64,000 nt of DNA from Acutalibacteraceae bacterium (GTDB lineage: Bacteria > Bacillota > Clostridia > Oscillospirales > Acutalibacteraceae): assembly GCA_045544155.1 (NCBI GenBank), contig JAZPYN010000009.1:5940-69939 (forward strand), given 5' to 3'. Each line of letters begins with the position of its first letter. Positions within the stretch are counted from its first letter, which is position 1. A model generated the notes under the pieces. That model had not been told where the DNA came from, searched no databases, and saw nothing but the letters and a program-made list of their open reading frames with translations. This document shows positions 38,667 through 62,473 of this stretch, piece by piece. Position numbers and translations under genes: made by a program.

Positions 38667-38800
38667 GTGGTTTTTTCTGCGAATATCAAAAAAATTGAAT
38701 ATTAATACTCAGTTTGCAATCTGTCAACAGAATTTACATTAATTTTACGGTTGTATTTTTTTTAATTGTGTGATAGTATTAATACTGTATAAGTAAAAAT

Positions 38801-40165
38801 ATGCTCTTTTTTACCGAAAAAGGTGAGATTTTGAAAAAAAACGAAATTTCAGTTGAGAGAAAAAAAGAAAAGAAAAACAAAAAAACAGTTATAGGTATAG
38901 CTGTGGCACTTGTAGTCATTGCAGGCATAGCTTTAGGGTTGATATTGCCGGTTGTTATCAGCTATTACAATAACGCTTACGAAAAGGCTGAAATTGTCGA
39001 GCGCACCGATGAATATGTGCGCCCCGAAATGGATGAGCAACCTTCGGGTTGGGAGGATGTTACTCTCAGTGAGGATGAGCTCGGCGACGATATAACTATT
39101 GAACCGGAAACTTTGCCTAACAGCGTTAATCAGAGCGGAACCGGTAATAACTACAACAGCTCCAATTCGTTCGGAAACTCAGCGAATGCTGTCAGTGTTT
39201 ACGGCAAAACACCGATATACAAGGTGGAGAAAAAGAACCCCGATATCGAAAACATACTTGTTCTCGGTACGGATTCAAGAGATGTTACGCGTGAACGAGG
39301 AAGAAGCGATGCTATTATCATTTTTTCATATAATAAAAAAACTGATGAAGTAAAAATGATATCGGTTCTTCGTGACTCTCTTGTACCTATCGAGGGCCAC
39401 GGATGGAACAGGATAAATGCCGCGTATTCCTTTGACGGCGTAGGTCTTGCAGTCAATACAGTTAATCAGATATTTGACCTTGATATACAGCGGTTTGTGG
39501 TAGTTGATTTCAACGGTGTTAAGGATTTTATTAACAAGGTAGGCGGCGTTGATATAAAACTTACAAAGGCGGAGGCTGAATATTTTAATCGAACAGGTAC
39601 GCTCGGCAAGCAGGTTGAGGAAGGAGTATGTCATCTCAGCGGTGCGCCGGCACTGACATATATGCGTACGCGTAAGGTTGACAGCGATTTTGGCAGGACA
39701 AACCGACAGCAGAAGCTTATACAGGCTTTGGCTAACAAGATACTCAATGAAAAGACATTGCCCGAAATATACGGTCTGACAGATTTTGCATTTAAGCTTA
39801 TTAAAACGAATATCACTCTTCCCGAGCTGACCGGTGTAATATCGGCAATAGCTAAGACAGATAACGCTGACAGCGGCGAGTATGAGCAGTTAACCGAAGA
39901 AAGCACGTCGCTGCAGGAGCATACACAGGTTGAGCAGAATACGATGCGGGAAGATGTTACAGCTTTGGAAGAAGAGATTTCCGCCATAACGGATGAAGCT
40001 GAGGTTGAAAGCACAGCTGCTCAAGCGGGCAAGGAGCTGTATATGCAGGCACAGCACGTACCGTATGACGGTGCTTATTCATATAAAAGATATAACGGGA
40101 TGGCTATAATATCGTTTGATATTGATGATGCCGCACGTCGTATAAACAGATTTATTTACGGTTAA
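38801..40165 (+). CDS. LytR-CpsA-Psr (LCP) family glycopolymer transferase
   Basis: 454-aa ORF with an N-terminal TM segment and LCP core motifs ILVLGTDSRD and GRSDAIIIFS. An alternative TTG start lies at 38831. Acidic C-terminal extension. Confidence 0.85.
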   Translation: MLFFTEKGEILKKNEISVERKKEKKNKKTVIGIAVALVVIAGIALGLILPVVISYYNNAYEKAEIVERTDEYVRPEMDEQPSGWEDVTLSEDELGDDITIEPETLPNSVNQSGTGNNYNSSNSFGNSANAVSVYGKTPIYKVEKKNPDIENILVLGTDSRDVTRERGRSDAIIIFSYNKKTDEVKMISVLRDSLVPIEGHGWNRINAAYSFDGVGLAVNTVNQIFDLDIQRFVVVDFNGVKDFINKVGGVDIKLTKAEAEYFNRTGTLGKQVEEGVCHLSGAPALTYMRTRKVDSDFGRTNRQQKLIQALANKILNEKTLPEIYGLTDFAFKLIKTNITLPELTGVISAIAKTDNADSGEYEQLTEESTSLQEHTQVEQNTMREDVTALEEEISAITDEAEVESTAAQAGKELYMQAQHVPYDGAYSYKRYNGMAIISFDIDDAARRINRFIYG

Positions 40166-40182
40166 CTTTGGAGGCGAGCTCC

Positions 40183-40905
40183 GTGCTTGATATTCATTGC
40201 CATATTTTGCCCGGCGTTGATGACGGCTCGGGTGCTCTCAGCGATTCTCTTGAAATGGCACGCATTGCAGCGGCTTCGGGAATAAGCAGTATTGTTGCAA
40301 CACCTCACTGCAATATACCGGGTCTTTGTAAAAACTACCGCAGTGAAAAATTAATATCAAAGTTCAATGAGCTGCATGATGCACTGGAACGTAATTTGAT
40401 TCCTGTTGATTTGTATTACGGTCAGGAAGTTTTCTTTACGGATGACTTTGAAAAACATTTTGAGCACGGAGATTTTTTAACGCTCAACGGCTCGAAATAT
40501 ATGCTGGTAGAGCTTGATTTTGAGATAAGTGAAGAAGAGGCGATAAAAAGCATAAAGCGCGTTGCTTCAACAGGTGTCGTGCCTGTTGCGGCACACCCTG
40601 AACGGTACGGCTTTATTGTTGAGCAGCCCGACCGTGCAGTGCAGCTCTGCCGCGCAGGTGCCTTGCTCCAGCTCAACCGAAGCAGTATAGTAGGTGAGTT
40701 CGGTCAACGCATATATTCAGCGGCAAAATACATATTGGATAACGGGCTTGCTGATGCGGTTGCAAGCGATGCACACAGCCAATACAGCAGAATACCTGAT
40801 TTTTCCGATGTGCACGAGGCGATATGCGAGAATTGGTCTTATGATTACGCAGATATTCTTCTAAAAATAAATCCGACAAAAATAATTAAAAATGAAACGG
40901 TCTGA
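40183..40905 (+). CDS. CpsB/YwqE-type (PHP family) protein-tyrosine phosphatase
   Basis: I prefer the GTG at 40183, 8 nt after GGAGG; the track opens at a TTG at 40168. The N-terminus is VLDIHCHILPGVDDGS. Confidence 0.85.
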   Translation: MLDIHCHILPGVDDGSGALSDSLEMARIAAASGISSIVATPHCNIPGLCKNYRSEKLISKFNELHDALERNLIPVDLYYGQEVFFTDDFEKHFEHGDFLTLNGSKYMLVELDFEISEEEAIKSIKRVASTGVVPVAAHPERYGFIVEQPDRAVQLCRAGALLQLNRSSIVGEFGQRIYSAAKYILDNGLADAVASDAHSQYSRIPDFSDVHEAICENWSYDYADILLKINPTKIIKNETV

Positions 40906-40937
40906 AGACTGTTGCTTCAAAGAAAGGCGAAAATCGT

Positions 40938-41756
40938 ATGATAAAATGGCTTCAAAAAATAACTCTGCTGCTGTTTTCCGTAACGCTTGTTGCGTTTGTT
41001 GCGTTTTCGGTTATAGACAGGATAAAAACCGATACTACCGTTCCGGTTATCACTGTTGAGTCTGATACGATCGAAATGAGTGTCAGAGACAGCAAGGAGA
41101 TGCTTCTCAGAGGCGTTACGGCGTTTGATGAGAAGGATGGAGATATTACGGATAAGGTGCTTGTAGAGTCGGTATCAAAGTTTATAACTCCCGGTGAATG
41201 TACGGTAACCTATGCTGTTTCTGATTCTGACCGTCACGTTTCCAAGGTCACGCGTACGCTTCGCTATACCGATTACACAACACCGGAATTTTATATGAAG
41301 CGTGCTTTGGTCTACTCGGTGGATGAGGATGTTGATATACGCTCGGCCATCGGTGCGAGAGACTGTATTGACGGTGATATCAGCGACAAGGTCACCATAA
41401 CCGCGACTGATTTTGTTGAGAATACGGCAGGAGTTTTCACTGTGTCCGTATCGGCGGCAAACAGTATGGGCGATATGATATATCTTGATGTTACCGTGCA
41501 CGTTGAAGGTAATGAGACGATGGCACCTCAGATTCAGCTTGAAAAGAGCCTTATATATGTTAAGAAGGGCGAAACACCTATATTTGAAGACTATATAAAA
41601 GAGGTCACGGTCAACGGTGTGCTTATGAAAAATTACAATCTTCTTGTTTCAACTAACTATGACTGTGACAAGGAAGGTACATATAACGTACATTTCTATA
41701 TTTCCACCAATGAGGGTTACGAGGGCCACTCTATACTTACGGTTGTTGTTGAATAA
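40938..41756 (+). CDS. Membrane-anchored protein with Ig-like (DUF5011-type) domains
   Basis: 272-aa ORF with an N-terminal TM segment and repeated D..DGDI[ST]DKV signatures (AFDEKDGDITDKV, ARDCIDGDISDKV). Confidence 0.55.
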   Translation: MIKWLQKITLLLFSVTLVAFVAFSVIDRIKTDTTVPVITVESDTIEMSVRDSKEMLLRGVTAFDEKDGDITDKVLVESVSKFITPGECTVTYAVSDSDRHVSKVTRTLRYTDYTTPEFYMKRALVYSVDEDVDIRSAIGARDCIDGDISDKVTITATDFVENTAGVFTVSVSAANSMGDMIYLDVTVHVEGNETMAPQIQLEKSLIYVKKGETPIFEDYIKEVTVNGVLMKNYNLLVSTNYDCDKEGTYNVHFYISTNEGYEGHSILTVVVE

Positions 41757-41799
41757 TAATGATTATTTTGTTTCGCCTTAGTGCGAGAGGTGATGAGAT

Positions 41800-43308
41800 T
41801 TGAAGAGTAACAGATCGTGGTTTACGATAACTTTTGAATTGAACAGCCTGATAAGAGACCTGGTAAGAAATATATGGGCGATTCTGCTTGCAGGTCTGAT
41901 TGCGGCTATGGGAGTAAGCATTTTTGAAAAAAGTATATATACACCCAGCTATACAAGCAGCGCGGTGCTTGTAGTACGCTCTAAGGTGAGCAGCAGCGGT
42001 GCTTACAGTAACCTGTCGGCCTCGAGTGAAATGGCTACGATATTTACGAAGGTTTTTGATCAGGTATCGATGAAGAATCTTGCGGCTGAGAATCTTGGGC
42101 TTGATTCGTTTGACGGCGATATTACCGCAGAGGTAAACGGTTCGACAAACCTGCTGAATATATCCGTCAAGTCGGATGAGCCGGAGCTTGCATTTAAGCT
42201 GCTGACATCTGTGCTGGAGGTTTACCCGGAAATATCAGATGCGGTATTTACCAATGCGGTAATTGACGTTATTTCTTCACCTAAAATGCCGACTGCTCCG
42301 TCAAATTCCGTGCTTACGAGATACCGTAACCATATCGTATTGTTTGCAATGCTCTTTGAGGCTGGTCTCATAGTGCTGCTGTCGCTGCTTCGCGAAACGG
42401 TCAAGGAGGAAAAGGGATTTTCGGAAAAGATAGATTCGCACATTATTTCGACGATCTCGCACGAGCGTCCGCATCTCTCTCTTAAGGAGAGACTTCACCG
42501 AAAGAAAAGGTCACTGCTTATAAATGATGCATATTCAAGTCTGAGATTTACCGAGGATTACCAGAAGCTTGCAACCAAGCTTGAATATATGCATAAAAAT
42601 AAGGGACATAAGGTGTTTGTTGTTACAAGCGTTGCTGAGAATGAAGGTAAGTCTACGGTAGCCGCCAATACGTCATTGGCACTTGCCGGCAGAGGATACC
42701 GCGTTGCGCTTATAGACCTTGATGTCCATAAACCGTCAATGTATAAAATATTTGACTACGGTAAGGAAATGAAAAATGAGTTTTCGGACGTGCTTACAAA
42801 CCGTGTCACGCTTGACGATTTCAGCTTTGTACGTTACAGAAAGACTGATCTTATAATTGCTTTTAACAAAAAATCTCATACAAATAAAAACAGTGAATAT
42901 GACGCCACTGCACTGAAAAACTGCATTACCGCGCTTCGCGAAAAGGTTGACTTTGTAATTATAGATACTCCTCCGTCATCTGTTTCGGCAGACAGTGTTA
43001 TGGCATCGGCTTTTGTTGACAGAACGCTGCTTGTTGTAAGGACGGATTGCGTTGCGGTACGTGATATTAACGATGCGATACTCGCTGTATCCGACGCGGG
43101 CGGTAAGCTTGCAGGCTGTGTGCTCAACGATGTTTATAAGCCGTTTACACTTTTCGGACAGATAGGAATTGACGAAACCGGTTATCACGGCTACGCGGCA
43201 TATTACCGCGGTTACTCTAAATACGGCAGAGGCAATTTTGCCGTAGGAGATGCAGATGTGTTTACGGAAGAATCACTCGAAGATAAAACAGATAAAAAAC
43301 AGGGATAA
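41800..43308 (+). CDS. Fused Wzz-like chain-length domain and BY-kinase (protein-tyrosine kinase), paralogue 1
   Basis: TTG start behind GAGAGGTGA. Two TM segments bracket an extracytoplasmic domain. Walker A SVAENEGKST, Walker A' ALIDLDVHKP, Walker B VIIDTPP. C-terminal Tyr cluster GYHGYAAYYRGYSKYG. Confidence 0.8.
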   Translation: MKSNRSWFTITFELNSLIRDLVRNIWAILLAGLIAAMGVSIFEKSIYTPSYTSSAVLVVRSKVSSSGAYSNLSASSEMATIFTKVFDQVSMKNLAAENLGLDSFDGDITAEVNGSTNLLNISVKSDEPELAFKLLTSVLEVYPEISDAVFTNAVIDVISSPKMPTAPSNSVLTRYRNHIVLFAMLFEAGLIVLLSLLRETVKEEKGFSEKIDSHIISTISHERPHLSLKERLHRKKRSLLINDAYSSLRFTEDYQKLATKLEYMHKNKGHKVFVVTSVAENEGKSTVAANTSLALAGRGYRVALIDLDVHKPSMYKIFDYGKEMKNEFSDVLTNRVTLDDFSFVRYRKTDLIIAFNKKSHTNKNSEYDATALKNCITALREKVDFVIIDTPPSSVSADSVMASAFVDRTLLVVRTDCVAVRDINDAILAVSDAGGKLAGCVLNDVYKPFTLFGQIGIDETGYHGYAAYYRGYSKYGRGNFAVGDADVFTEESLEDKTDKKQG

Positions 43309-43317
43309 GGATACCGT

Positions 43318-44799
43318 ATGAAAAACAACAAAAACAACGATGTGAATAGCTCTAATTCACCCGTGGAAATAAGGGTGCTTATCAGTGATATTTGGCGCGG
43401 AGTAATCAAGTTCGGCTGGATTGCTCTGGCTCTTGCCGTGCTTTTCGGAGGTATACAGTTTTACAGGAGCTATGTGCGGTATAAACCTGAATACACCGTT
43501 TCAGCAACGTTTACGGTGCATACGGAAAACGCTGTGCTTTCGGGTGACAACGGCGTTTCTGCATATTCGTTCTACTATAATAAAAATACCGCTGACCAGC
43601 TTGCAAATGTTTTTCCGCACGTTGTCAATAACTCGTTGCTGAAAAATCAGGTGTGCAATGAGCTTGGTGTTAAGTCGATGCCTGCTGCGGTTACGGCAAA
43701 ATGTATTGCAGATACGAATATGGTAACTCTCACAGCCAAGGGTTCAGATCCCCAAATGACCTATGATGTTCTTATGAGTGTTATCAATAACTACTCTTCC
43801 GTTGCCGATTATATTATCGGCCGTACCAAGCTTGTTATGATAAATGAACCTGATATGCCTGACGGGCCTTCCAATACACTGGCGTGGCGTTCTGCTGTGC
43901 TAAGGGCAGCGTTGATAGGTCTCGTAATTGGTGTTGCATGGATAATGGTTTATGCAATACTTCGCAAGACGATACGTACTAAGGAAGATATACACACGAT
44001 ACTGAATCAGCACTGTGTAGGCATACTGCCGCAGGTCATTTTCAAAAAGTACCGTCGCCAGATTAACTCTGACATAATACTTACAAATCCCCTTATCGGA
44101 AACCATTTTCTTGAAGCCTTAAGACTTCTCAGAGGCTCTGTACAGCAGTGCCTTGATGAAAAGGACAGGGTTGTAATGATAACAAGTACTGCTCCGGGTG
44201 AGGGCAAGTCTGTTGTAACGTTTAATATTGCGGCATCTTTTGCTAAAAGCGGCAGCAAAGTGCTTGTGGTTGACTGTGACCTGCGCGACTCCGGAATCGA
44301 TACAATACTTTCCGGAGATGATTACGGAGTGAAGGTAACAGATGAAAAGAAAACATATACAGTAAGCAGTATTGAAGCGTTGGGCTTCGATATACTCAGT
44401 TTTAAAAACGGTGAGGATAATTTGCAGGAGATCATACGTACCTCACAGCTCAAGAATCTTTTTGAACAGATGAAGCAGGAATATGACCTTGTATTTGTTG
44501 ACACTCCGCCTTGCGGAATTATTTCGGATGCAACAATAATTGCCGGTGCTGCGGACACGCTGCTCTATGTTATAAGACAGGATGCTGTTTTGCAGACCAG
44601 CATCAGGGCAGGTATAAATTCCATGCTCGAAACAGAGATAAAATTTGCCGGCTGTGTTCTTAACGGTGCAACAGGTGGCTTTGGCGGCTACGGCAGCTAT
44701 AACGGGTATTCAGGCTATAACAAGTATTATCGCAGCAGTTATTCACGCAGATACGGTTACGGATACAGTAAAACCCAAAAAACAAAAGCAAACAAATAA
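43318..44799 (+). CDS. Fused Wzz-like chain-length domain and BY-kinase, paralogue 2
   Basis: 493-aa ORF with two TM segments. Walker A STAPGEGKS, Walker A' VLVVDCDLRDS, Walker B VFVDTPP. C-terminal Tyr cluster GGYGSYNGYSGYNKYYRSSYSRRYGYGYS. Confidence 0.8.
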   Translation: MKNNKNNDVNSSNSPVEIRVLISDIWRGVIKFGWIALALAVLFGGIQFYRSYVRYKPEYTVSATFTVHTENAVLSGDNGVSAYSFYYNKNTADQLANVFPHVVNNSLLKNQVCNELGVKSMPAAVTAKCIADTNMVTLTAKGSDPQMTYDVLMSVINNYSSVADYIIGRTKLVMINEPDMPDGPSNTLAWRSAVLRAALIGLVIGVAWIMVYAILRKTIRTKEDIHTILNQHCVGILPQVIFKKYRRQINSDIILTNPLIGNHFLEALRLLRGSVQQCLDEKDRVVMITSTAPGEGKSVVTFNIAASFAKSGSKVLVVDCDLRDSGIDTILSGDDYGVKVTDEKKTYTVSSIEALGFDILSFKNGEDNLQEIIRTSQLKNLFEQMKQEYDLVFVDTPPCGIISDATIIAGAADTLLYVIRQDAVLQTSIRAGINSMLETEIKFAGCVLNGATGGFGGYGSYNGYSGYNKYYRSSYSRRYGYGYSKTQKTKANK

Positions 44800-44834
44800 G
44801 CGGCTGTAATTCTTTTCGGGAGGTGAGTGAGCGA

Positions 44835-46571
44835 ATGAAAAAGCCCGGCGAGTATAATGAGCTGTTTCGCTCTCTCGGCTCTGAGTGGAAATGGCTTCTC
44901 GGATATATCTCACGTTATAAGCTTCATATTGCGGTTTATGTGATAATGGGCATTGTTGCTGCAGCGATGGGGCTGGGCGTGAGCGTTTCGTCAAAATATC
45001 TTATAGATGCGGTTCTTGACAAAAATGTACATACCATTGTGACCAGTGCGGCTGCTGCAGTTTTTCTGGGGCTGGCACAGATAGTCATAAACGCCGTAAT
45101 ATCAAGGGTTGCTGCAATGGCTGGCACCAAGATAAGCAGTGAAATACGTGAGAATATATACGAGCATATTGTGTTTTCGAAATGGGAGTCTGTAAGACGT
45201 TACCATTCGGGTGATCTGCTTAACAGAATTGAAGGCGATGCCGGTGCTGTGGCAAGCAGCATAGTTACTTTTATACCGGGTGTTTTTACCAAGCTTACTC
45301 AGTTTGTCGGCTGTCTTGCGCTTGTGCTTTATTATGATCCGACAATGGCGATCTTTGCGTTTTTGAGCACTCCTTTTCTTGCCCTTTCTTCACGTATTAC
45401 TGCCAAAATGACACGTAAATACAACAAAGAGAGTCGTGAAATGAACGGTAAGCTGATAAGCTTTTATTCTGAGTCTATACAAAACTTGCAGATGATAAAG
45501 GCTTTTGATATTACCTCACGATATGTAGAGCAGATACGCCGAAATCTTGCACTTTACAGAAAAATAAGGCTCGATCACGACAAATTCGCTACAATAATGA
45601 CGGCTTGTATGGCTGTAATAGGTCTTATAGTCTCGTATGCTTGCTACGGATGGGGTGTATGGAGGCTTTGGAACGGCATAATAAGCTTTGGTACGATGAC
45701 ACTGTTTTTGCAGATATCCGGCAAGCTGACAGCCTCATTTTCTTCGCTCGTTTCACTTGCACCGAGTGCAATCTCAATAGCCACTGCTGCCGGCAGAATT
45801 ATGGAGATCACACAGATGCCTCTTGAAAACGGCGGCGATGCGGATAAGGCGGCTCAAATGAGCGATTCCGTAAGAAAAAACGGGATTACAATAGAATGCG
45901 AAAATCTGACATATACTTATGATGACGGCACGGAACCCGTTGTGAAAGATGTTTCATTTATTGCCCGTGCAGGAGAAACAATAGCCTTCGTAGGTCCTTC
46001 GGGAGAAGGCAAAACGACGGTTCTACGGCTTGTTTTAGGCTTGCTTGAGCCGGATTCAGGCTCGATTATAATGCGTACGGATGACGGTGAGGCTATCAAG
46101 GCTTCAGAGAGCACGAGGCGGTTTTGTTCCTATGTACCGCAGGAGAATGCGGTGTTTTCGGGCTGTATTGCGGATAATCTGCGCATCGTCTGCCCTGAGG
46201 CAAGTGATGATGATTTGAAATGCGTTCTTGAAGCGGCAGATGCGTGGAGTTTTATTGAGAGACTGCCGCTCGGCATTTACACATCTGTTGATGAAAAAGG
46301 TGTTAATTTTTCAGAGGGACAGATTCAGCGTATATCAATTGCACGTGCTCTTTTGCGTGATGCAGCTGTTATTGTTATGGATGAGGCTACAAGTGCACTT
46401 GATGCCGCTACGGAGGAGAGGGTGCTTGCAAATATGATGAAGGCATATCCTAACCGCACACGAATTATAACAACGCACAGACCCAGTATGCTCAGGTATT
46501 GTACGCGTATTTACCGAATAAGCACAGACGGCACGCTGACTCAGGTGAGTGCTGAGGAAGCTGCAGGATAA
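44835..46571 (+). CDS. ABC exporter, fused permease/ATP-binding protein
   Basis: I prefer the ATG at 44835, 12 nt after GGGAGG; the track opens at a GTG at 44823. Six-TM N-terminal half. Walker A GPSGEGKTT, signature FSEGQIQR, Walker B VIVMDEATS. No C39 peptidase domain. Confidence 0.85.
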   Translation: MKKPGEYNELFRSLGSEWKWLLGYISRYKLHIAVYVIMGIVAAAMGLGVSVSSKYLIDAVLDKNVHTIVTSAAAAVFLGLAQIVINAVISRVAAMAGTKISSEIRENIYEHIVFSKWESVRRYHSGDLLNRIEGDAGAVASSIVTFIPGVFTKLTQFVGCLALVLYYDPTMAIFAFLSTPFLALSSRITAKMTRKYNKESREMNGKLISFYSESIQNLQMIKAFDITSRYVEQIRRNLALYRKIRLDHDKFATIMTACMAVIGLIVSYACYGWGVWRLWNGIISFGTMTLFLQISGKLTASFSSLVSLAPSAISIATAAGRIMEITQMPLENGGDADKAAQMSDSVRKNGITIECENLTYTYDDGTEPVVKDVSFIARAGETIAFVGPSGEGKTTVLRLVLGLLEPDSGSIIMRTDDGEAIKASESTRRFCSYVPQENAVFSGCIADNLRIVCPEASDDDLKCVLEAADAWSFIERLPLGIYTSVDEKGVNFSEGQIQRISIARALLRDAAVIVMDEATSALDAATEERVLANMMKAYPNRTRIITTHRPSMLRYCTRIYRISTDGTLTQVSAEEAAG

Positions 46572-46581
46572 TAGTTGTTTT

Positions 46582-46620
46582 AAGCAGGAGGTGTATATGG
46601 CCTTCTGCTTATTTTTTTTA
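46582..46620 (+). terminator. Strong intrinsic terminator after the ABC exporter
   Basis: AAGCAGGAGG (46582-46591) pairs with CCTTCTGCTT (46601-46610): 10 bp including one G-U pair. It is followed by ATTTTTTTT. Confidence 0.8.
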
Positions 46621-46651
46621 AAGTGAATTACTGTATATTTATATATATATA

Positions 46652-46680
46652 TTGCTTTATTTTTCTTGACGTGATATAAT
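46652..46680 (+). promoter_or_regulatory. Sigma-A-type promoter of the RiPP-like cassette
   Basis: TTGCTT (46652-46657), a 17-nt spacer ending in TG-A, then TATAAT (46675-46680). Confidence 0.6.
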
Positions 46681-46725
46681 CAATTTGGTTTATTATGATT
46701 TATGATAAAATGTGGTGTTGCAGTT

Positions 46726-46992
46726 ATGTTTAAGATCAAGGATGGCTTTATTGTACGGCGTATAGGTCCGCAGACGATGGCTGTACCTACGGGTAAAATG
46801 ACATCGGAGATACACGGTATGATAGCACTCAGCGAGAGTGCAGTCTGCTTGTGGTCGGCACTTGAAAAGGGCGCGGAAGCACATGAGCTTGCGAAATTGC
46901 TGACAGATCAATATGAAACGGATTACGACACTGCGCTTGCTGATGTCGAAAAATTTATTGAAGGCTTGCGTGAGCAGGGGGCTCTTGAATAA
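46726..46992 (+). CDS. PqqD-family protein (RiPP recognition element / peptide chaperone)
   Basis: 88-aa product from the ATG at 46726; the track opens at 46702. MFKIKDGFIVRRIG...ALSESAVCLWSAL...ELAKLL...YETDYDTALADVEKFIEGLREQGAL fits the PqqD family pattern by eye. Confidence 0.7.
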   Translation: MFKIKDGFIVRRIGPQTMAVPTGKMTSEIHGMIALSESAVCLWSALEKGAEAHELAKLLTDQYETDYDTALADVEKFIEGLREQGALE

Positions 46993-48044
46993 TGGAATGC
47001 GACAGCTTTAATTCAAAATATACGGATTTGCTGGGGAGCTGGGCTAAGGAAAACCGTGTGCCGCTTACAGTAAATTTTGAGCTGACTCCGTTTTGTAACT
47101 TCAGCTGTGTAATGTGCTATGTTCGGCTCGATAAAAAGTCGGCAGAAGTTCAGGGCAGAATGCTGACAGCCGATGAATGGCTCGATATTGCTGCACAGGC
47201 TAAGGCTATGGGCACACTCAACCTTGCACTTACGGGCGGTGAGCCGCTTACTCATCCCGATTTCTGGTATATATACAGCAGGCTCAACAAAATGGGCTTT
47301 CTTCTTTCAATACTGACAAACGGTTCACTTATAGATGAAGCTGTTATAGAAAAGTTTCGTATGTACGGTATGCCGTACAGGGTGAAAATTACTCTTTACG
47401 GTGCGAGCGACGAAACATATCTGCGCACCTGCGGCTCACACGACGGCTTTACAAGGATTTCAAAAGCGATAGATCTTCTCAAAGCAGAGGGTGTGCCGCT
47501 TACGCTTACCTCTACTGTTGTACACGAAAACGCAGATGACCTGCAGGCGATGTACAGATTTGCGGCAGGAAAGGGTCTCAGACTTCAGCATACGGTCAGT
47601 GTGCTTAAATCCTCGCGCGGCTCTGTTAACTCGGTTGCGTCTTCTCGTTTTGCTTTGAGCGATTTCCCCGATGAGCTTTCACTCGAGCAGCTTGAGCGCA
47701 GTAAATTTCCTCCGCTTGCCTCTCCGTTTGCCTGGTGTGCGAGTAAGGATGTGTCATTCTGGATGACTTGGCACGGCCATATGCAGCTTTGTGCCTTTAT
47801 GTGTAAGCCGTATATCAAATATTCGGGCGACATTTCGCATGATTATGAACGTATGCTGTCCTTGCTCGACGACATAAAAAGTCCGTTGGAATGCAGCAAC
47901 TGCGAATGGGCGGATTTTTGTCAGCGGTGTCCGGGTATTCTCTGTGCAGAGAGCTCGGATCCGGAGAAAACAGAAAAAGGTCTTTGTGATATGGCAAAAA
48001 GGCTTTATGAAATATATTTAACTAAAAAAGGAGAAAAGGTATGA
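46992..48044 (+). CDS. Radical SAM / SPASM-domain peptide-modifying enzyme
   Basis: 350-aa ORF with CNFSCVMC (CX3CX2C), LTGGEPL, and a C-terminal Cys cluster (CAFMC...CSNCEWADFCQRCPGILC). The start overlaps the PqqD stop (TAATG). Confidence 0.8.
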   Translation: MECDSFNSKYTDLLGSWAKENRVPLTVNFELTPFCNFSCVMCYVRLDKKSAEVQGRMLTADEWLDIAAQAKAMGTLNLALTGGEPLTHPDFWYIYSRLNKMGFLLSILTNGSLIDEAVIEKFRMYGMPYRVKITLYGASDETYLRTCGSHDGFTRISKAIDLLKAEGVPLTLTSTVVHENADDLQAMYRFAAGKGLRLQHTVSVLKSSRGSVNSVASSRFALSDFPDELSLEQLERSKFPPLASPFAWCASKDVSFWMTWHGHMQLCAFMCKPYIKYSGDISHDYERMLSLLDDIKSPLECSNCEWADFCQRCPGILCAESSDPEKTEKGLCDMAKRLYEIYLTKKGEKV

Positions 48045-48307
48045 AGAAAAAGTATATTGCTCCCGAAAGCAGACTTTTTGCGATCAACCTGAGTGAAAGT
48101 ATTGCGGTTTCCGGCGGTACATCTGAAATTTCAGGCTCGGCCGTTATCCAGTTTACCGATGCTATGGACGGCTGCAGAACTTACTATTCCGGTATTCAGT
48201 CCGCTAAAGTTGAAACTACAGGTACCGGCTTTATTGATTATTATAACGAGCTTATGGGCTACGGCGCAGAGGCGTATTTTAACTGCTTCCGCTATAAGTT
48301 CGGATGA
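48041..48307 (+). CDS. 88-aa hypothetical peptide; candidate RiPP precursor/scaffold
   Basis: AAGGAG (48028-48033) lies 7 nt before the ATG, and ATGA overlaps occur at both ends. No TM segment or signal peptide. The sequence starts MKKKYIAPESRLFAINLSESIAVSGG, followed by a Gly/Tyr/Ser/Thr-rich region with 2 Cys. Confidence 0.6.
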   Translation: MKKKYIAPESRLFAINLSESIAVSGGTSEISGSAVIQFTDAMDGCRTYYSGIQSAKVETTGTGFIDYYNELMGYGAEAYFNCFRYKFG

Positions 48308-49074
48308 GGATCGGGCTGTGCGGTCTGCCGTTTGAGTGGCAGGCGGATAATACGGATTTTGTAAAAGATTTTGCCTCGGAAGATGAAGCAAGTCCGGTTA
48401 TGAAGCTAAGCTTTGCTGATGCTATGCCCGAGGGATACGGTATACAGTATGCCGATACGCCGACTTCACATCTTCTCAGACTGTCCGGCGGTGAGCTGCT
48501 GTGCGCCGCAGATGATTGGAGCGAGGCCACTGTTTATTTCGACAATGACAACAGTGAGTATGCCTTGCCGCTTGCAGCTGTGTGCTCAAGGCTTGCTTAT
48601 TTCGGCGGACTTCTTTTTCACGCTTCGTGTGTTGAGCTCGACGGTGAGGGTGTTGTGTTTGCAGGATTTTCGGGAGCAGGCAAAACAACTCAGGCAAGGC
48701 TGTGGAAAGAGTATCTCGGCGCAGAGATTATAAACGGAGACAAGGTGCTTGTGCGCTTGGCAGAAGGTGAAGTTTTGGCATACGGTCTTCCGTGGAAGGG
48801 CTCGTCTGAATACTGCCTGAACCGCAGGACAAGGTTAAAGGCGATAGTAATACCGATGCACTCTTCAGTAAATAAGATAACAAGGCTTGATACGCTCGGT
48901 ATAGTTGAGAAGCTTATGCCGCACGTTTTTCTCCCGCATTGGGACAAGCGTTGCCTTGAGCTTGCACTTTCTGCTTTTGACACACTGCAGACTGAGATAT
49001 CGGTATGGCTTCTTGAGTGCAGGCCCGATAAAGAGGCTGTGAAATTGACTTACGGTACGGTTTTTGACAAGTGA
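48304..49074 (+). CDS. HprK C-terminal-domain-like P-loop kinase
   Basis: 256-aa ORF. LFHASCVELDGEGVVFAGFSGAGKTT matches the HPr-kinase-like catalytic core pattern (HA..V...G.GVL..G.SG.GKS/T). Confidence 0.65.
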   Translation: MRIGLCGLPFEWQADNTDFVKDFASEDEASPVMKLSFADAMPEGYGIQYADTPTSHLLRLSGGELLCAADDWSEATVYFDNDNSEYALPLAAVCSRLAYFGGLLFHASCVELDGEGVVFAGFSGAGKTTQARLWKEYLGAEIINGDKVLVRLAEGEVLAYGLPWKGSSEYCLNRRTRLKAIVIPMHSSVNKITRLDTLGIVEKLMPHVFLPHWDKRCLELALSAFDTLQTEISVWLLECRPDKEAVKLTYGTVFDK

Positions 49075-49523
49075 TGGAAAAATTAGTTTGTTCTGCATCT
49101 GACTTTACGCAGATGCTTGAGGATACCTTAAACGACGGTGCTGTTGTACCGCTTTGTGTTACCGGTACAAGTATGCGTCCGTTTCTGCTTGAGGGCAGGG
49201 ATACAGTGTGGCTGAGCCGCTGCTGCAGCGAAGATATAAAGCGTGGCAGTATAGTGCTTTTCAGACGCAGTGACGGAACGCTCGTGCTTCACAGGATACG
49301 CCGTGTAAAGTCTGACGGTGAACTGACAGTTAACGGTGATGCTCAGAGATGGTGCGAAGCTGTTGAGGCATCAAGGGTTATTGCTGTTGTGCGTTATATT
49401 GAGCGTAACGGCAGCAAAATAAACTGTTCAGGCGGCGGCTTCAGATTTCGCAGTGAAATATGGCAGATTTCCAAGCCCTGCAGACCCTTTTTGCTCAAGG
49501 TTTGGAGAAAGCTGACAAAATGA
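49074..49523 (+). CDS. S24/S26-family (signal-peptidase-like) serine peptidase with no TM segment
   Basis: 149-aa product from the ATG at 49074 (a GTG lies at 49071). Motifs GTSMRP (Ser box), RGSIVLF, VLHRIRRV (His in the position of ER/archaeal/SipW-type enzymes) and NGD. No hydrophobic run of 18 aa or more. Confidence 0.6.
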   Translation: MEKLVCSASDFTQMLEDTLNDGAVVPLCVTGTSMRPFLLEGRDTVWLSRCCSEDIKRGSIVLFRRSDGTLVLHRIRRVKSDGELTVNGDAQRWCEAVEASRVIAVVRYIERNGSKINCSGGGFRFRSEIWQISKPCRPFLLKVWRKLTK

Positions 49524-50686
49524 ATTGGAGTAACGGTATGGATGCTCTGAAAACCGAGGTGCTGATATCCTTAATATCGGGCGCGGTGCACGGCTGTGAG
49601 CCTGTATTGCCTGACGGATGTGAGTTGAGTGAAGATTTACTTCTTGAGCTGTACAATGTTTCAAGAAACCATGATGCAGCTCATCTTGTCGGTGCGGCGC
49701 TTGGCTATGTTGATTGCGTAACTGTACCGAGCATTTACGGAGACAGTACTTTTTTTGCGATATACCGATATGAAAATATGAGCTTTACGCTAAAGAATGT
49801 TTCAGCTGCTCTTGAATCGGCAGGTATACCGTTTATACCTCTTAAGGGTGCTGTTATTTCAGAGCTCTATCCCGAGCCGTGGATGAGGACGAGCTGTGAT
49901 ATCGATATCCTTGTGCACGAACAGGATACGGAACGCGCAGTTGATGAACTGACAGAGAAGCTCGGATTCAGTTTAGGTAAAAAGGGAAGACACGATGTGG
50001 TGCTTACATCAGCAGAAGGAATTTCGCTTGAGCTTCACTTTACCTTGCTTGAGGATGATGATTTCCGCGATGCATCGCAGGTGCTGTCCGAAGTATGGAG
50101 CTACGCTTTGCCCGTTAAAGAAGGCAGTTCTGAGCACAGGCTCAGCAGTGAGATGCTTTGCTTTTACCATATCGTGCATATGGCACGGCATTTTATTTGC
50201 GGCGGCTGCGGTATACGTCCGTTTCTTGATTTGTATTTGATAACTGATAAAAATACCGAAAGGTTGCCCTACGGTCTGCTGAAAAGGGCAGGTCTTGTTA
50301 AATTCGGTGAGAGCGTGACGAAACTCAGTAATGTGTGGTTCGGGAACGGCGAGCACGATGAGGTAACGCTTGAAATGCAGGAATTTATCATTGACGGCGG
50401 TAAATTCGGCTCGGGTGAAAGTCGCCTTGCCGCATGGGAAAGCGTTGCGGGCGGCAAGAAAAAATATGTTGCTTCACGTATATTTCTTCCGTACGACAAG
50501 CTCAAATATCAGTATCCCGTATTGGAAAAACACCGTTTTTTGACCCCTGCCTGCGAAATTTGTCGTTTGTTTTCACTTGTGGCAGGAAAAAAGAAAAAAG
50601 TGAGAAAAAAGCAATTTGACAGAATAAATAAGCTGTCTGAAGGCTATGCCGAAAAAACAGCGGCATTGTTTGAAAAAATATTTTGA
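49520..50686 (+). CDS. PF14907-like (NTP_transf_5) nucleotidyltransferase-fold protein
   Basis: I prefer the ATG at 49520, which overlaps the peptidase stop (ATGA); the track opens at 49460. PLKGAVISELYPEPWMRTSCDIDILV fits the family motif by eye. Confidence 0.6.
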   Translation: MNWSNGMDALKTEVLISLISGAVHGCEPVLPDGCELSEDLLLELYNVSRNHDAAHLVGAALGYVDCVTVPSIYGDSTFFAIYRYENMSFTLKNVSAALESAGIPFIPLKGAVISELYPEPWMRTSCDIDILVHEQDTERAVDELTEKLGFSLGKKGRHDVVLTSAEGISLELHFTLLEDDDFRDASQVLSEVWSYALPVKEGSSEHRLSSEMLCFYHIVHMARHFICGGCGIRPFLDLYLITDKNTERLPYGLLKRAGLVKFGESVTKLSNVWFGNGEHDEVTLEMQEFIIDGGKFGSGESRLAAWESVAGGKKKYVASRIFLPYDKLKYQYPVLEKHRFLTPACEICRLFSLVAGKKKKVRKKQFDRINKLSEGYAEKTAALFEKIF

Positions 50687-50723
50687 TAAAATCAAACTGT
50701 TGTGTAGAAAGAGCGATAGATAT

Positions 50724-51377
50724 ATGGATAAAAAGGTTCAGACCGGTAATCAAAGCGGATATCGTGTCATCAAAAGATTTTTTGATATAGTGCTGTCGTT
50801 TATCGGCATAGTTATACTGCTTGTGCCTATGTTGTTAATTATGCTGATAGTAGTTATTGATGATCCGGGCAGCCCAATATTTTCGCAGAAGCGTGTAGGC
50901 AGAAACGGTGAGCTGTTTAATGTTTACAAGCTGAGAACCATGAAAAAGCACACGCCGAAATACCTTGCGACCAAGGATGTGGATGACCCGGATAAGTATA
51001 TCACAAGAACTGGCAGGCTTCTGCGTAAGCTTTCGATAGACGAGCTGCCTCAGCTTTTCAATATACTCAAGGGTGATATGAGTATTGTGGGCCCGAGACC
51101 GCTCATCCCCGATGAAAAAGAGATACATATTCTTCGTGAGCAATGCGGTGTATACAGCCTACGCCCCGGTCTGACGGGTCTTGCACAAATAAACGGCAGA
51201 GATCTGGTGTCTGCGCAGAAAAAAGTGGCTTGGGATGAAAAGTATCTGAATAATATCAGCTTTAAAACAGATATAAAGATTCTTTTGGCAACGATTCCAA
51301 AGGCTCTTGGCGGTAAGGATGTTTCAGAAGCCTTTGACAGCACCGAAAAAGATGGAGCAACGGAAGGGAATAACTAA
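50724..51377 (+). CDS. Small (PglC/WcaJ C-domain-like) polyprenyl-phosphate phosphoglycosyltransferase
   Basis: 217-aa product from the ATG at 50724; the track opens inside the previous gene. One N-terminal hydrophobic helix, PIFSQKRVG, and DELPQLFNILKGDMSIVGPRP. Confidence 0.85.
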   Translation: MDKKVQTGNQSGYRVIKRFFDIVLSFIGIVILLVPMLLIMLIVVIDDPGSPIFSQKRVGRNGELFNVYKLRTMKKHTPKYLATKDVDDPDKYITRTGRLLRKLSIDELPQLFNILKGDMSIVGPRPLIPDEKEIHILREQCGVYSLRPGLTGLAQINGRDLVSAQKKVAWDEKYLNNISFKTDIKILLATIPKALGGKDVSEAFDSTEKDGATEGNN

Positions 51378-52800: not shown

Positions 52801-53990
52801 AAATTCTTATCCACACAGATGAATATTATCCTACTTGTGCAGCATGTGCATACAGGATTAAGTCTTTTGCAGATACTTTTACAGATAACGGTAATGAGGT
52901 TACCGTTATTACAAGCTCTGCAAATAAGCACAACGGTAAACTCGAAGCTCATAGTGAAAGAATACTTTTTTCTCCTACTGTAAGGATGAAAAAGAAAACC
53001 ACATTAATGAGATTGCTCAATAATCTTAGTTTTGCGTTTACATCGGTGTTAACAGCATTCAGAGCGGGAAAAGCTGATGTCGTTATAACAACATCACCGC
53101 CTCCGCTTGTAAGCATATCCGGATGGTTGATTTCTAAAATCAAGCGTGCAAAACTGGTATATGATGTCCGCGATATCTGGCCTGATGTTGCTATTGAAAT
53201 GAATAGCTTCGGAGAAAATAGTTTCTACTGCAAACTGTTTACAGCAATAACATCTTTTATGTATAAGCATGCCGATATGGTAACCACAGTTTCTCCCGGC
53301 AAAGTTGAAAAAATCAAAGGTAAACTGCCGGCAGACGATGCGAATAAAACCATATTAGTGGGAAACGGTTTTGACGAGAATATTCTGAACAGCAAAACCG
53401 ATGAAGATATTATAAACAAATACGATCTTGACAGCGGCTTTACATGTGTTTATATCGGCAATATAGGTCTCGCACAGGGTCTTGATTCCATTCTTGAAAT
53501 TGCGGCTGAGACAAGGCATAAAGATGTCAGATTCCTTTTGTTTGGTACAGGTGCAGAAAAAGATTCACTTGAACAAGCGGCTAAGGAAGCAGGGCTTGAT
53601 AACGTGTCTTTCTGTGGAGTCATTCCTCATGACAAGGTGTACACGATACTTATCGGGGCTAAACTTAGTTTTATTCCACTCAAAAGCGCAAAGATGAAGG
53701 ACAGTATACCCACAAAAATATATGAAGCACTCGGTGTAGGCTGCCCTGTGTTCCTTGTAGCCGAAGGTGATGCATGCGATATTGTTAATGAAAGCTGTAT
53801 GGGATACTGTGTTTCGCCTGAACAAAACAGCAAGTTAATTGAAACATTTGACAGAATGGTTGATTTTTATGATGAAATATGCGTTAATCGTTTATTTGCT
53901 CAAAATTTGATAAAGAATAAGTATTCGCGTCGCTCTATTGCTGATGAGTTTGAAATGCAGTTAAAAAAATTGGTGAATGAAAAAGGGTGA
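52797..53990 (+). CDS. GT4-family (WbuB-like) glycosyltransferase
   Basis: 397-aa ORF with ATGA overlap to the previous gene. GT-B fold features include the E-x7-E region (PTKIYEALGVGCPV). Confidence 0.75.
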   Translation: MKILIHTDEYYPTCAACAYRIKSFADTFTDNGNEVTVITSSANKHNGKLEAHSERILFSPTVRMKKKTTLMRLLNNLSFAFTSVLTAFRAGKADVVITTSPPPLVSISGWLISKIKRAKLVYDVRDIWPDVAIEMNSFGENSFYCKLFTAITSFMYKHADMVTTVSPGKVEKIKGKLPADDANKTILVGNGFDENILNSKTDEDIINKYDLDSGFTCVYIGNIGLAQGLDSILEIAAETRHKDVRFLLFGTGAEKDSLEQAAKEAGLDNVSFCGVIPHDKVYTILIGAKLSFIPLKSAKMKDSIPTKIYEALGVGCPVFLVAEGDACDIVNESCMGYCVSPEQNSKLIETFDRMVDFYDEICVNRLFAQNLIKNKYSRRSIADEFEMQLKKLVNEKG

Positions 53991-53996
53991 ATATAT

Positions 53997-55223
53997 ATGG
54001 TAAATGTTATTGGTCTGGGTTACATAGGTCTTCCTACAGCGCTTATGATGGCGGCACACGGCGTAAAGGTTGTCGGAACTGATTATAATCCCGAGCTGGT
54101 TGCTACGCTTAAGAGCGGAAAGACTACATTTAAAGAGGATGGACTTGATGAGCTTTTTGCTGATGCGGTAAAGGGCGGAATTGAGTTTTCAACCGAGTAT
54201 CAGGTTACGGATACATACATTGTTTCTGTTCCGACTCCGTATGATAAGTTCTCAAAGAAAATAGATGCGTGCTATGTTATATCAGCTGTTCAGAGCGTAA
54301 TGGCTGTGTGTCCCAAGGGTGCGGTAGTTGTTATTGAATCAACTGTTTCCCCCGGTACTATTGACAAGTATGTGCGTCCTGCAATTGAGGCAAACGGATT
54401 TGAAATAGGAAAGGATATTCATCTTGTTCACGCTCCGGAGAGAATTATTCCCGGTAATATGATTTATGAGCTCCTTCACAACAACCGTACTGTTGGTGCA
54501 GACGACAGGTCAGTAGGTGAAAAGGTCAAAGAGCTGTATGCTTCCTTCTGTCAGGGCGAAATAGTAGTTACCGACATAAGAACAGCAGAAATGACAAAGG
54601 TCGTTGAGAATACATTCCGTGCGGTCAATATAGCCTTTGCAAACGAGCTTGCAAAGATATGTATGCACGATGATATGGATGTTTATGAAATAATAAGAAT
54701 ATGCAATATGCACCCGAGAGTAAATATCCTTCAGCCCGGTCCGGGTGTCGGAGGCCACTGTATCAGCGTTGACCCGTGGTTCCTTGTCGGTGATTATCCG
54801 GGGCTTACAAAGGTAATAGGGCAGGCTATGGCTGTTAACGACAGTATGCCGGAGTTTGTACTCGACAGAATACACGAGATAATGATTGAAAACCATATGA
54901 GTGATCTCAGCCGTGTCGGTCTCTACGGCCTTACATACAAAGAAAATGTTGACGATTGCAGAGAGTCACCGACTCTTCAGCTGCTTGAAAGTCAGAGCCG
55001 TCACCTTGCAGAGCCTCTTAAAACTTACGATCCGTATGTTACAGAGGAAATGGTTGAGCATCAATACTATGATTTTGATGAATTTATTGACAGCGTAGAT
55101 ATGGTTGTTGTAATGGTAGGCCACGATGAAATAAAGCAGAATCAGCACAAGCTTCATGGCAAAATTGTGCTTGATACACGCAAAGTCTGCTCACCCGATA
55201 TCGGTAAGGTTTACTATATCTGA
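53997..55223 (+). CDS. wecC: UDP-N-acetyl-D-mannosamine dehydrogenase (Cap5O/WecC-like)
   Basis: 408-aa ORF with N-terminal VIGLGYIGLPTA and the catalytic Cys region GGHCIS. It lies next to a UDP-GlcNAc 2-epimerase gene. Confidence 0.75.
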   Translation: MVNVIGLGYIGLPTALMMAAHGVKVVGTDYNPELVATLKSGKTTFKEDGLDELFADAVKGGIEFSTEYQVTDTYIVSVPTPYDKFSKKIDACYVISAVQSVMAVCPKGAVVVIESTVSPGTIDKYVRPAIEANGFEIGKDIHLVHAPERIIPGNMIYELLHNNRTVGADDRSVGEKVKELYASFCQGEIVVTDIRTAEMTKVVENTFRAVNIAFANELAKICMHDDMDVYEIIRICNMHPRVNILQPGPGVGGHCISVDPWFLVGDYPGLTKVIGQAMAVNDSMPEFVLDRIHEIMIENHMSDLSRVGLYGLTYKENVDDCRESPTLQLLESQSRHLAEPLKTYDPYVTEEMVEHQYYDFDEFIDSVDMVVVMVGHDEIKQNQHKLHGKIVLDTRKVCSPDIGKVYYI

Positions 55224-55251
55224 AGAAAATTATAATTTCTGAGGTCTTTCA

Positions 55252-56346: not shown

Positions 56347-56363
56347 CAGAGAGGTGTACCCCG

Positions 56364-57152: not shown

Positions 57153-57157
57153 CGGAG

Positions 57158-58360: not shown

Positions 58361-58394
58361 ATTATTAATAAAGCAGACAGGAGGTGAGCTGATA

Positions 58395-62454: not shown

Positions 62455-62473
62455 CAATTTTATGAGGTTGAGT

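Follow-up and report, generated by a model that had tools for sequence, protein, structure and literature searches.

An 88-residue protein encoded beside a radical SAM enzyme and a PqqD-type protein in capsule loci of gut Clostridia is a likely substrate of a leader-dependent maturation cassette

The stretch of DNA analysed here (the window) comprises 64,000 nucleotides of contig JAZPYN010000009.1 from an Acutalibacteraceae genome (assembly GCA_045544155.1). Within a capsule-type locus it carries a chain of six genes on the forward strand, joined by overlaps of 1-4 nucleotides as read at the junctions. These encode a PqqD-family protein, a radical S-adenosylmethionine (rSAM) enzyme, an 88-residue protein that we call P88, an HprK-like P-loop protein, an S26-like peptidase and a nucleotidyltransferase-like protein of the NTP_transf_5 family. 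An earlier reading made from the letters of the DNA (the sequence-only reading) had proposed P88 as a candidate precursor or scaffold peptide of the rSAM-PqqD pair. The adjacency of the genes, a constrained N-terminal leader, the sharing of this leader with a family of short peptides and the occurrence of relatives with swapped cores support that proposal. We consider it likely that P88 is a ribosomally made substrate of a leader-dependent maturation cassette, and probably the adjacent rSAM enzyme's own substrate.

The P88 open reading frame (ORF) occupies positions 48041..48307 of the + strand, stop codon included, and is identified as that of an 88-residue mini-protein, a probable precursor, by direct reading, homologue searches and purifying selection. 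Its translation is exactly the one quoted in the sequence-only reading, and the residues singled out there are all in place: Gly25-Gly26, Cys45 (codon 48173-48175), Cys82 (48284-48286) and eight tyrosines, including Tyr49 (48185-48187). The ribosome binding site (RBS) claimed there, AAGGAG at 48028..48033 (+), is read directly and lies 7 nucleotides 5' of the ATG; the two ATGA overlaps are read directly too and combine the rSAM stop with the P88 start (48041-48044) and the P88 stop with the HprK-like start (48304-48307). P88 also lacks a transmembrane segment or signal peptide, as had been stated; its Kyte-Doolittle mean over 15 residues peaks at 1.13, and the charged or polar residues E9, R11, N16 and E19 break up the N-terminus.

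Searches with the single P88 sequence retrieved 58 clusters at 90% identity and a profile search 117 clusters, while phmmer, run exhaustively over 1.84 billion representatives, picked out 31 of these. In total there are about 140 homologues of 75-106 residues, every one from metagenome-assembled genomes (MAGs) of gut Clostridia, and the few that are named are all annotated "hypothetical protein". A scan of one genome per species located P88 in 43 Clostridia/Acutalibacteraceae MAGs from ruminant and other guts; these are the species loci referred to below. An identical P88 is encoded by the goat-cecum MAG RGIG1745. Across the P88 codons of 42 species, synonymous sites are saturated (pS ~0.74), and pN is 0.13 for the leader (codons 2-24) versus 0.35 for the core (codons 27-88). 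A GGAG-type RBS at similar spacing precedes P88 in nearly all of the 42 orthologous loci, and the stop/start overlap with the downstream gene is kept in most of them. Given the homologues, the low pN relative to saturated pS, and the retention of the RBS and overlaps, P88 is a translated gene under purifying selection, with residues 1-24 as its most constrained part. The sequence-only reading was thus right to take the ORF for a real product; the number of homologues and the purifying selection rule out a spurious or chance ORF.

The association with the neighbouring enzymes is as constant as the gene itself. That reading had named, as a check on its proposal, whether homologues always adjoin rSAM and PqqD genes, and P88 does lie directly 3' of PqqD-rSAM in 43/43 species loci, its relatives lying directly 3' of an rSAM gene in 6/6 other contigs examined. 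The order PqqD-rSAM-P88-HprK-like is contiguous in 42/43 species loci, the exception being probably L029, where the contig ends inside P88.

The leader, residues 1-24 (MKKKYIAPESRLFAINLSESIAVS; 48041..48112, +), is delimited by pN, invariant alignment columns, profile-profile comparison with hhalign and AlphaFold2 (AF2) modelling. M1, K2, Y5, P8 and E19 are invariant in the alignments and hydrophobic residues alternate at positions 13, 15 and 17; throughout P88 and its homologues (the long family) the N-terminus is near-invariant, reading MKKKY[IV]xPESxLfxINLxENIAxS. The linker after the leader is rich in Gly, Ser and Asp and varies in length in distant relatives. The Gly25-Gly26 junction (48113..48118, +) is the leader-cleavage zone predicted from conservation: G26 is conserved in 100% and G25 in 74% of the 42 close loci, and small residues stand at -3/-1 of the predicted cleavage points (A22 and S24, or S24 and G26). 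Further out in the family the junction reads I-A-x-S, with the linker of variable length behind it. The earlier description of a leader-like N-terminus ending in Gly-Gly therefore holds for the conserved leader, whereas the Gly-Gly is fixed among close relatives only. S28 and S31, which belong to the Ser/Thr after it that had been put forward as possible kinase targets, are likewise conserved in close relatives only. Of the two outcomes that had been set out, a conserved N-terminus with a variable remainder or the reverse, neither describes P88 fully: the leader is the more constrained part, but the core is conserved as well. Cleavage of a double-glycine leader by a C39-bearing ATP-binding cassette (ABC) transporter was considered and rejected, since the ABC protein of the locus is without a C39 domain and the Gly-Gly is lost in distant relatives.

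A leader of the same kind is found in a sister family of shorter peptides. In six species a paralogous cassette (L012:5388-8513; also L008, L019, L021, L024 and L044) sits between the ABC gene and the PqqD gene, and in four others (L005, L029, L033 and L042) it lies just 5' of the capsule locus; the window lacks it. The products of this paralogous cassette are an S26-like peptidase, an rSAM enzyme about 31% identical to that of the window, a two-Cys peptide of 51-59 residues (MKKTYETPVAEKIEF...) and an HprK-like protein fused to PqqD. On the grounds of this fusion, the HprK-like protein can be argued to act on the leader-bearing peptide. A profile search collected 141 clusters of short-family peptides (48-69 residues), in which the leader, MKKTYETPVAEKIEFRYxDQVVASG, is essentially invariant and the cores are hypervariable. 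An invariant leader in front of freely varying cores is the usual signature of precursors of RiPPs (peptides that are ribosomally synthesised and modified after translation), and by this pattern the short peptides look like precursors. Exactly two Cys are present in 108/118 members, and the residue at +4 from the first Cys is aromatic in 95/118 (Trp in 93), compared with a background of 9%. When the P88 family is aligned to the short family with hhalign, only residues 1-26 and 1-25, respectively, align (probability 88.7%, E 2.6e-6), and both leaders are in the same register, with Y5, P8, hydrophobic residues at 13/15/17, an acidic residue at 19, I/V21, S24 and G25 in common.

Exchange of the core is also seen behind the long-family leader. 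The proteins P0259-P0261 (94-102 residues) carry a P88-type leader at 82-86% identity, followed by unrelated 70-residue cores with one Cys 3-5 residues from the C-terminus (for example L058:7520-7813). The setting of P0260, Ig-Wzz-Wzz-ABC-PqqD-rSAM-peptide-ScmC-S26-NTP5, has the same order as that of P88. Because P0259-P0261 keep the leader with unrelated cores, leader and core are separable modules, and a role of P88 as an enzyme subunit is therefore hard to reconcile with them. P88 thus combines two features of an RRE-dependent RiPP precursor (RRE, RiPP recognition element): its gene adjoins those of a putative maturase and a candidate RRE protein, and its leader is more conserved than its core and exchangeable between cores.

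As for the wider setting of the short family, its cassettes adjoin polysaccharide genes in Blautia sp. MSJ-9, and ABC genes accompany them too. A third ScmC-associated cassette (L050:870-2177) encodes a 452-residue rSAM enzyme, a 49-residue peptide rich in Cys (MSVMEKPVVEFIDLADIIVTSCPND...), a ScmC-like protein that stands alone and a pair of ABC transporters, of which one carries a C39 domain. A 60-residue ORF of a Bacteroidaceae genome (L047:10001-10183; MKKKYIIPECKFF...) shares only about the first ten residues of the leader and adjoins a 1194-residue S8-type peptidase; its tblastn match, which spans residues 1-34 with 41% identity and has an E of 6e-4 in the candidate set, may be due to chance.

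The P88 core comprises residues 27-88, about 62 residues (48119..48304, +), and contains Cys45-x3-Tyr49 as well as Cys82, which lies 6 residues from the C-terminus. It is moderately conserved, at I36, F38, (D)GC45R, Y49, Y67-Y68 and then Cys82. Among the 87 long-family proteins of the first searches, 78 carry exactly two Cys and 83 have an aromatic residue at +4 from the first (Tyr49 in P88), set against a background aromatic frequency of 16%. Of 138 long-family proteins, 135 have their last Cys within 2-9 residues of the C-terminus. In an AF2 model built from a 57-sequence alignment (mean pLDDT, the predicted local distance difference test, 72.4; pTM, the predicted template modelling score, 0.51), residues 1-26 are coil, with the lowest pLDDT at 22-24, and residues 27-88 form a small alpha/beta domain at pLDDT ~70-83. 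The core is therefore, going by this model and the alignments, unusually long, conserved and probably folded. Neither P88 nor the short peptides belong to a family in Pfam or NCBIfam scans, the sole hit being a 9-residue match to a lasso model at E 0.37. Foldseek comparison of the P88 model with the PDB gave a best E of 3.9, without a known fold. A P88 profile run against PDB sequences matched only the designed beta-propellers Tako8 and Ika8, through repeated weak matches of which no stretch passes by itself, and we discard this as an artefact. An Rfam scan of the window returned no RNA family.

Upstream of P88, the PqqD-family protein (46702..46992, +; PF05402, E 1.8e-12) is a candidate stand-alone RRE found in 43/43 loci; homologues support ATG 46726 as its probable start. 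Its matches to the NCBIfam models of lasso-PqqD (26 vs 70 and 21 vs 80) and PqqD (18.4 vs 46) are weak and all under cut-off. The rSAM protein (46992..48044, +; 350 residues; PF04055, E 2.3e-27) has the motif C35-x3-C39-x2-C42. Towards its C-terminus, eight Cys form a SPASM-type pattern: C249-x12-G262-x4-C267 and C301-x2-C304-x5-C310-x2-C313, plus C318 and C332. Across 43 orthologues, all of these Cys are conserved to at least 95%. The two neighbours are thus those named in the sequence-only reading, and its SPASM label agrees with the conserved Cys pattern, although the Pfam SPASM model is unmatched at E <= 0.1. Among solved structures, the sactisynthase SkfB (2e-10) and PqqE (7e-9) come nearest. 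The Cys motifs correspond to the SPASM/twitch type expected of sactipeptide and ranthipeptide maturases; however, among the best 25 of 68 NCBIfam matches, the rSAM protein falls under the cut-off of every named maturase family (AlbA, SkfB, StsB, CteB/SCIFF and others).

Downstream, the product of 48304..49074 (+), identified by profile searches and motifs, is an HprK-fold (ScmC-like) P-loop protein and a putative peptide kinase. NCBIfam matches to HprK_rel_B (E 3e-7) and ScmC (E 4.5e-5) are both under cut-off, and Pfam ScmC (PF27840) is recorded on homologues. A 13-member profile retrieves HPr kinase structures first (1ko7 9e-6, 1jb1 3e-5) and then phosphoenolpyruvate carboxykinase (PEPCK), PF07475 matches 6/13 members, and H106, S123, G126, K127 and D146 are invariant, corresponding to a conserved His, G-x-S-G-x-G-K-[ST] and a downstream Asp. 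The protein is thus one with the HPr-kinase/PEPCK P-loop core as judged by sequence comparison, and its kinase activity is putative. A single-sequence AF2 model (pLDDT 38.6) was unusable, and the fold assignment rests on the profile searches.

The next gene (49071..49523, +; start probably ATG 49074) encodes a soluble S24/S26-type Ser/His peptidase, the candidate leader peptidase. It matches archaeal-type signal peptidase I (E 3.8e-8, under cut-off) and Peptidase_S24 (E 0.002), and conserves G32-x-S34-M35-x-P37, H74-R75 and G89-D90 in 40 orthologues. A Ser/His pair is typical of SipW and Sec11-type peptidases. The protein has no transmembrane segment (Kyte-Doolittle maximum over 19 residues 0.99), and the peptidase of the sister cassette also matches the model of a cytoplasmic NiSOD maturation protease, under cut-off. 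The last gene (49520..50686, +; PF14907, E 1.6e-36) encodes a 388-residue NTP_transf_5 nucleotidyltransferase-like protein that keeps D147-x-D149. Its ORF opens at 49460, with ATG 49520 as the probable start given the ATGA overlap and the GGAGAA (49504-49509) ahead of it; the 388-residue homologue in L001 matches this length. No other conserved small ORF was seen in the cassette.

Ahead of the cassette lies the gene of an ABC exporter (44823..46571, +) with a transmembrane domain (PF00664, from residue 37 of 582) and a nucleotide-binding domain (PF00005), the candidate exporter of the product; Pfam detects no C39 peptidase domain in it. The gene is 5' of PqqD in 40/43 loci. The gap between the two contains the region's strongest terminator-like hairpin, of 12 bp (46581-46611) and followed by T8 (46581..46619, +), as well as an extended -10 element (TGATATAAT; 46672-46680, +), each recognised only as a consensus match. 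The hairpin and T8 after the ABC gene and the extended -10 before PqqD suggest that the six-gene cassette has its own promoter.

From 5' to 3', the locus encodes LCP, CpsB, an immunoglobulin (Ig)-like protein, two tandem Wzz-fused P-loop kinases, the ABC protein, the cassette, initiating sugar transferases, glycosyltransferases, Wzy and a glycerophosphotransferase. This gene content marks the surroundings of the cassette as a capsule or exopolysaccharide locus of the Wzx/Wzy type. The module next to it (40938..44799, +), assigned with Pfam, comprises the Ig-like surface protein (40938-41756) and the two tyrosine-kinase-type fusions (41800-43308 and 43318-44799), whose C-termini are Tyr-rich (e.g. 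GGYGSYNGYSGYNKYY...). Of the 43 loci, 41 contain Ig, Wzz1 and Wzz2, and 40 contain S26 and NTP5; contig ends account for part of the gaps. The arrangement is kept in more than 40 species. Mean identity to the window copy is 62.5% for P88 and 63.6% for PqqD and rSAM, and P88 identity tracks that of Wzz1, Wzz2 and the ABC protein (r = 0.80-0.85). In a more distant genome (L057), the cassette stays with Ig-Wzz-Wzz-ABC and no sugar or glycosyltransferase genes come after it, while in another it follows pyruvate formate-lyase genes with a sugar transferase still next.

Compared with the species-representative MAG L004, the window is 95.8% identical at the nucleotide level over 38722-51352. Similarity is lost near 51352, with different genes in place of those for the second sugar transferase and a glycosyltransferase, and returns at 82% over 53982-59669. 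Because of this break, both the cassette and the first of the sugar-transferase genes can be said to lie just ahead of the capsule-type mosaic. Where the capsule locus ends on its 3' side, a pair of ORFs, each about 495 residues long (60955-62454 and 62462-63943), has no Pfam match; L001 has similar-sized genes (505 and 497 residues), also without Pfam annotation, after Wzy.

Among known systems, the closest working analogy is QhpC/QhpD/QhpE/QhpF and not mycofactocin. QhpC, the gamma-subunit of quinohemoprotein amine dehydrogenase, is a protein of ~9 kDa whose 28-residue leader is needed for binding the rSAM enzyme QhpD. This enzyme introduces three Cys thioethers, cytoplasmic removal of the leader falls to the serine protease QhpE, and the ABC protein QhpF exports the product, all from one operon (PMC7876137). 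The likeness lies in the protein-sized substrate, the N-terminal leader (28 residues there, ~24 in P88), an rSAM/SPASM enzyme and a dedicated serine peptidase and ABC exporter. However, P88 has no sequence relation to QhpC, QhpD is not among the best 25 of the 68 NCBIfam matches of the rSAM protein, the window peptidase is S26-type and not subtilisin-like, the RRE is a separate PqqD protein, and HprK-like and NTP_transf_5 proteins are added. The locus is also without the dehydrogenase subunits QhpA/B, and the setting is a capsule locus of Gram-positive Clostridia, so the resemblance is one of working and not of membership.

Sactipeptide and ranthipeptide systems (SkfA/SkfB, subtilosin AlbA, CteA/CteB) similarly have an rSAM enzyme with SPASM/twitch-type clusters, a PqqD-family RRE, a leader-core substrate with Cys and ABC export. 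Their cores have fewer than ~40 variable residues, in contrast to the ~62 residues of P88, which are conserved, probably folded and have two Cys. They differ further in that the leader peptidase here is S26-type, the thioether in P88 is a prediction, and the window rSAM scores 73 bits vs 625 for StsB and 50 vs 850 for AlbA. The SynChlorMet (SCM) system likewise brings together a ScmC-type HprK-like protein, PqqD (ScmD) and rSAM/SPASM enzymes (ScmE/ScmF), but the window scores are 22.9 vs 125 (ScmC), 66.5 vs 400 (ScmE) and 61.1 vs 400 (ScmF), the taxa differ, and the cassette has one rSAM enzyme, where SCM has two, and an evident precursor. We know of no precursor reported for SCM.

In pseudomycoidin, PsmK phosphorylates the lasso precursor and PsmN (catalytic D134/D136) is required for placing hexose on the phosphorylated peptide (PMC6993621). 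Compared by description, the lasso pair PadeK/PsmK and PsmN resembles the P88 locus in having an HprK-fold protein, a nucleotidyltransferase with D-x-D, a PqqD-family protein and an ABC protein beside a ribosomal peptide; however, the window locus has no lasso cyclase (Asn-synthetase-like) or B2 protease, P88 has no conserved C-terminal Ser, and the core enzyme is an rSAM protein. Mycofactocin (MftA/B/C) and PQQ (PqqA/D/E) likewise have a small ORF next to the genes of a PqqD-type chaperone and of an rSAM/SPASM enzyme. The sequence-only reading had likened the P88 C-terminus to mycofactocin, and this analogy fails: the FRYKFG tail is variable among relatives, there is no conserved C-terminal Val-Tyr or Glu-x3-Tyr, and the rSAM protein scores 65.2 bits vs 265 for MftC and 75.7 vs 381 for PqqE. 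With the PqqD score also under cut-off, no PqqB/C or other pathway genes in the locus, the whole core conserved and an exporter present, we reject membership in mycofactocin/PQQ; the scores among the best 25 matches and the missing genes likewise place the window proteins outside the Qhp, SCM and lasso families.

For P88 as a substrate, the gene content suggests the following route. The PqqD protein would be the recognition element that binds the leader, probably as a beta-strand through the hydrophobic residues 13, 15 and 17, and would present the core to the rSAM/SPASM enzyme. The latter may make one or two intramolecular cross-links, the likeliest being a thioether from Cys82 and/or Cys45-x3-Tyr49; chemistry near the C-terminus remains plausible because the sole universal core residue is a Cys 4-7 residues from it. 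By analogy with PsmK and PsmN acting on a lasso peptide, the HprK-like protein might phosphorylate the peptide and the NTP_transf_5 protein might decorate that phosphate. The soluble S26-type peptidase would cut the leader after A22-x-S24 or S24-G-G26, and the ABC transporter would export a mini-protein of ~6.5 kDa.

What the product does is the weakest step of the argument. Because synteny is fixed, P88 diverges together with the Wzz/kinase genes and the core is conserved and not hypervariable, we weakly favour a product that serves the capsule or cell-envelope system, with its tyrosine-kinase module, over a strain-specific bacteriocin. A more specific proposal, which we make with low confidence, is that a RiPP-type pathway has been recruited into polysaccharide biogenesis, and that a cross-linked, Tyr-rich mini-protein of ~6.5 kDa is a working part of capsule assembly and not an antibiotic or signal. 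Under such recruitment the NTP_transf_5 step might, speculatively, be phospho-glycosylation or nucleotidylation, and the product could conceivably act as a primer or anchor that bears a phospho-sugar, or else modulate the tandem Wzz/tyrosine kinases or be their substrate.

The chief alternative is that P88 is a conventional secreted RiPP, an antimicrobial or a signal, whose cassette merely sits in the capsule locus, perhaps by insertion, without a capsule role; we regard this as possible, if doubtful. The parts list of RRE, rSAM enzyme, tailoring enzymes, peptidase and ABC exporter is of the bacteriocin type, the hypervariable cores of the short family resemble those of weapons or signals and occur with C39-ABC transporters off polysaccharide loci (L050), the acceptance of extra paralogous cassettes between the ABC and PqqD genes in six species suggests an insertion hot spot, and the hairpin and -10 element set the cassette apart from the upstream genes. 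Against this stand the constant position in more than 40 species, the co-divergence with Wzz and ABC genes, a core as conserved as the enzymes and the persistence of the cassette beside Ig-Wzz-Wzz even where sugar genes are missing (L057), and neither an immunity nor a regulator gene was seen. It is unlikely, though the conservation of P88 along its whole length, its predicted folded core, the ATGA coupling on both sides, which suggests stoichiometric synthesis, and a length of 88 residues, long for a RiPP precursor, would all fit it, that P88 is instead an accessory or scaffold subunit of the rSAM enzyme, the HprK-like protein or the capsule machinery, with the true substrate elsewhere or not a peptide. 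Residues 1-24 are homologous to the leader of precursor-like peptides, the swapped-core relatives keep that leader where total replacement of the folded part of a subunit would be unexpected, and a dedicated RRE and peptidase are present with no second conserved small ORF to serve.

Two further readings fare worse. In one, P88 is a sacrificial scaffold, and a small peptide-derived molecule or cofactor of the PQQ or mycofactocin type is cut out of it around the near-C-terminal Cys. This would explain why a Cys 2-9 residues from the C-terminus is the sole universal core feature, swapped cores included, and PqqE and MftC are among the better rSAM model matches. Both fall far below their cut-offs, PqqB/C- and MftD/E-type genes are absent from the locus, purifying selection on the whole core would be needless for an excised dipeptide, and a peptide-exporter-type ABC protein accompanies the cassette, all of which makes this reading quite improbable. 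We give least credence to a small protein secreted through Sec, its signal peptide cut by the S26-type signal peptidase: the Lys-rich N-terminus, the A-x-S-like junction and the signal-peptidase-family neighbour recall such a system, but there is no hydrophobic h-region, the conserved residues include E9, R11, N16 and E19, the peptidase lacks a membrane anchor, and PqqD and the leader homology point to cytoplasmic RRE-guided processing.

Several points also weigh against P88 as the substrate of a leader-dependent cassette serving the capsule. The length of its core, the conservation throughout and the predicted fold are atypical of RiPPs and would fit a partner subunit too, and the AF2 model is only moderately confident. 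The homology between the P88 and short-family leaders spans just 26 columns. The rSAM enzyme is in no characterised maturase family above cut-off, which leaves its chemistry to conjecture; it may be that the P-loop protein is no peptide kinase, and the family alignments show no invariant Ser or Thr in the core. Short-family cassettes are also found away from polysaccharide loci, as in the bacteriocin-like setting of L050 with its C39-ABC transporters, and the link to the capsule could be one of position alone. Each of the proposed steps, from binding through cross-linking, phosphorylation and cleavage to export, is deduced from sequence.

A literature search found no description of this cassette, and no Pfam or NCBIfam family, solved structure or paper matching P88 was found. 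The kind of pathway, RRE-guided rSAM peptide maturation, is known; the cassette is set apart by the protein-sized conserved core, the S26-type leader peptidase, the HprK-like and NTP_transf_5 tailoring and its residence in capsule loci. If our interpretation is correct, it would connect a cassette for peptide maturation with that conserved end of capsule loci where the Wzz/tyrosine-kinase genes lie, a link found in no paper or family library. To our knowledge, no target has been identified for the ScmC/HprK-like proteins found beside rSAM-PqqD pairs, and P88 would provide an evident substrate for them. P88 and the short peptides would then constitute an uncharacterised precursor superfamily of rSAM/SPASM substrates in uncultured gut Clostridia, with ~140 long-core and ~140 short-core clusters united by one leader, whose long branch, with its protein-sized conserved core, would sit between RiPPs and QhpC-type protein maturation.

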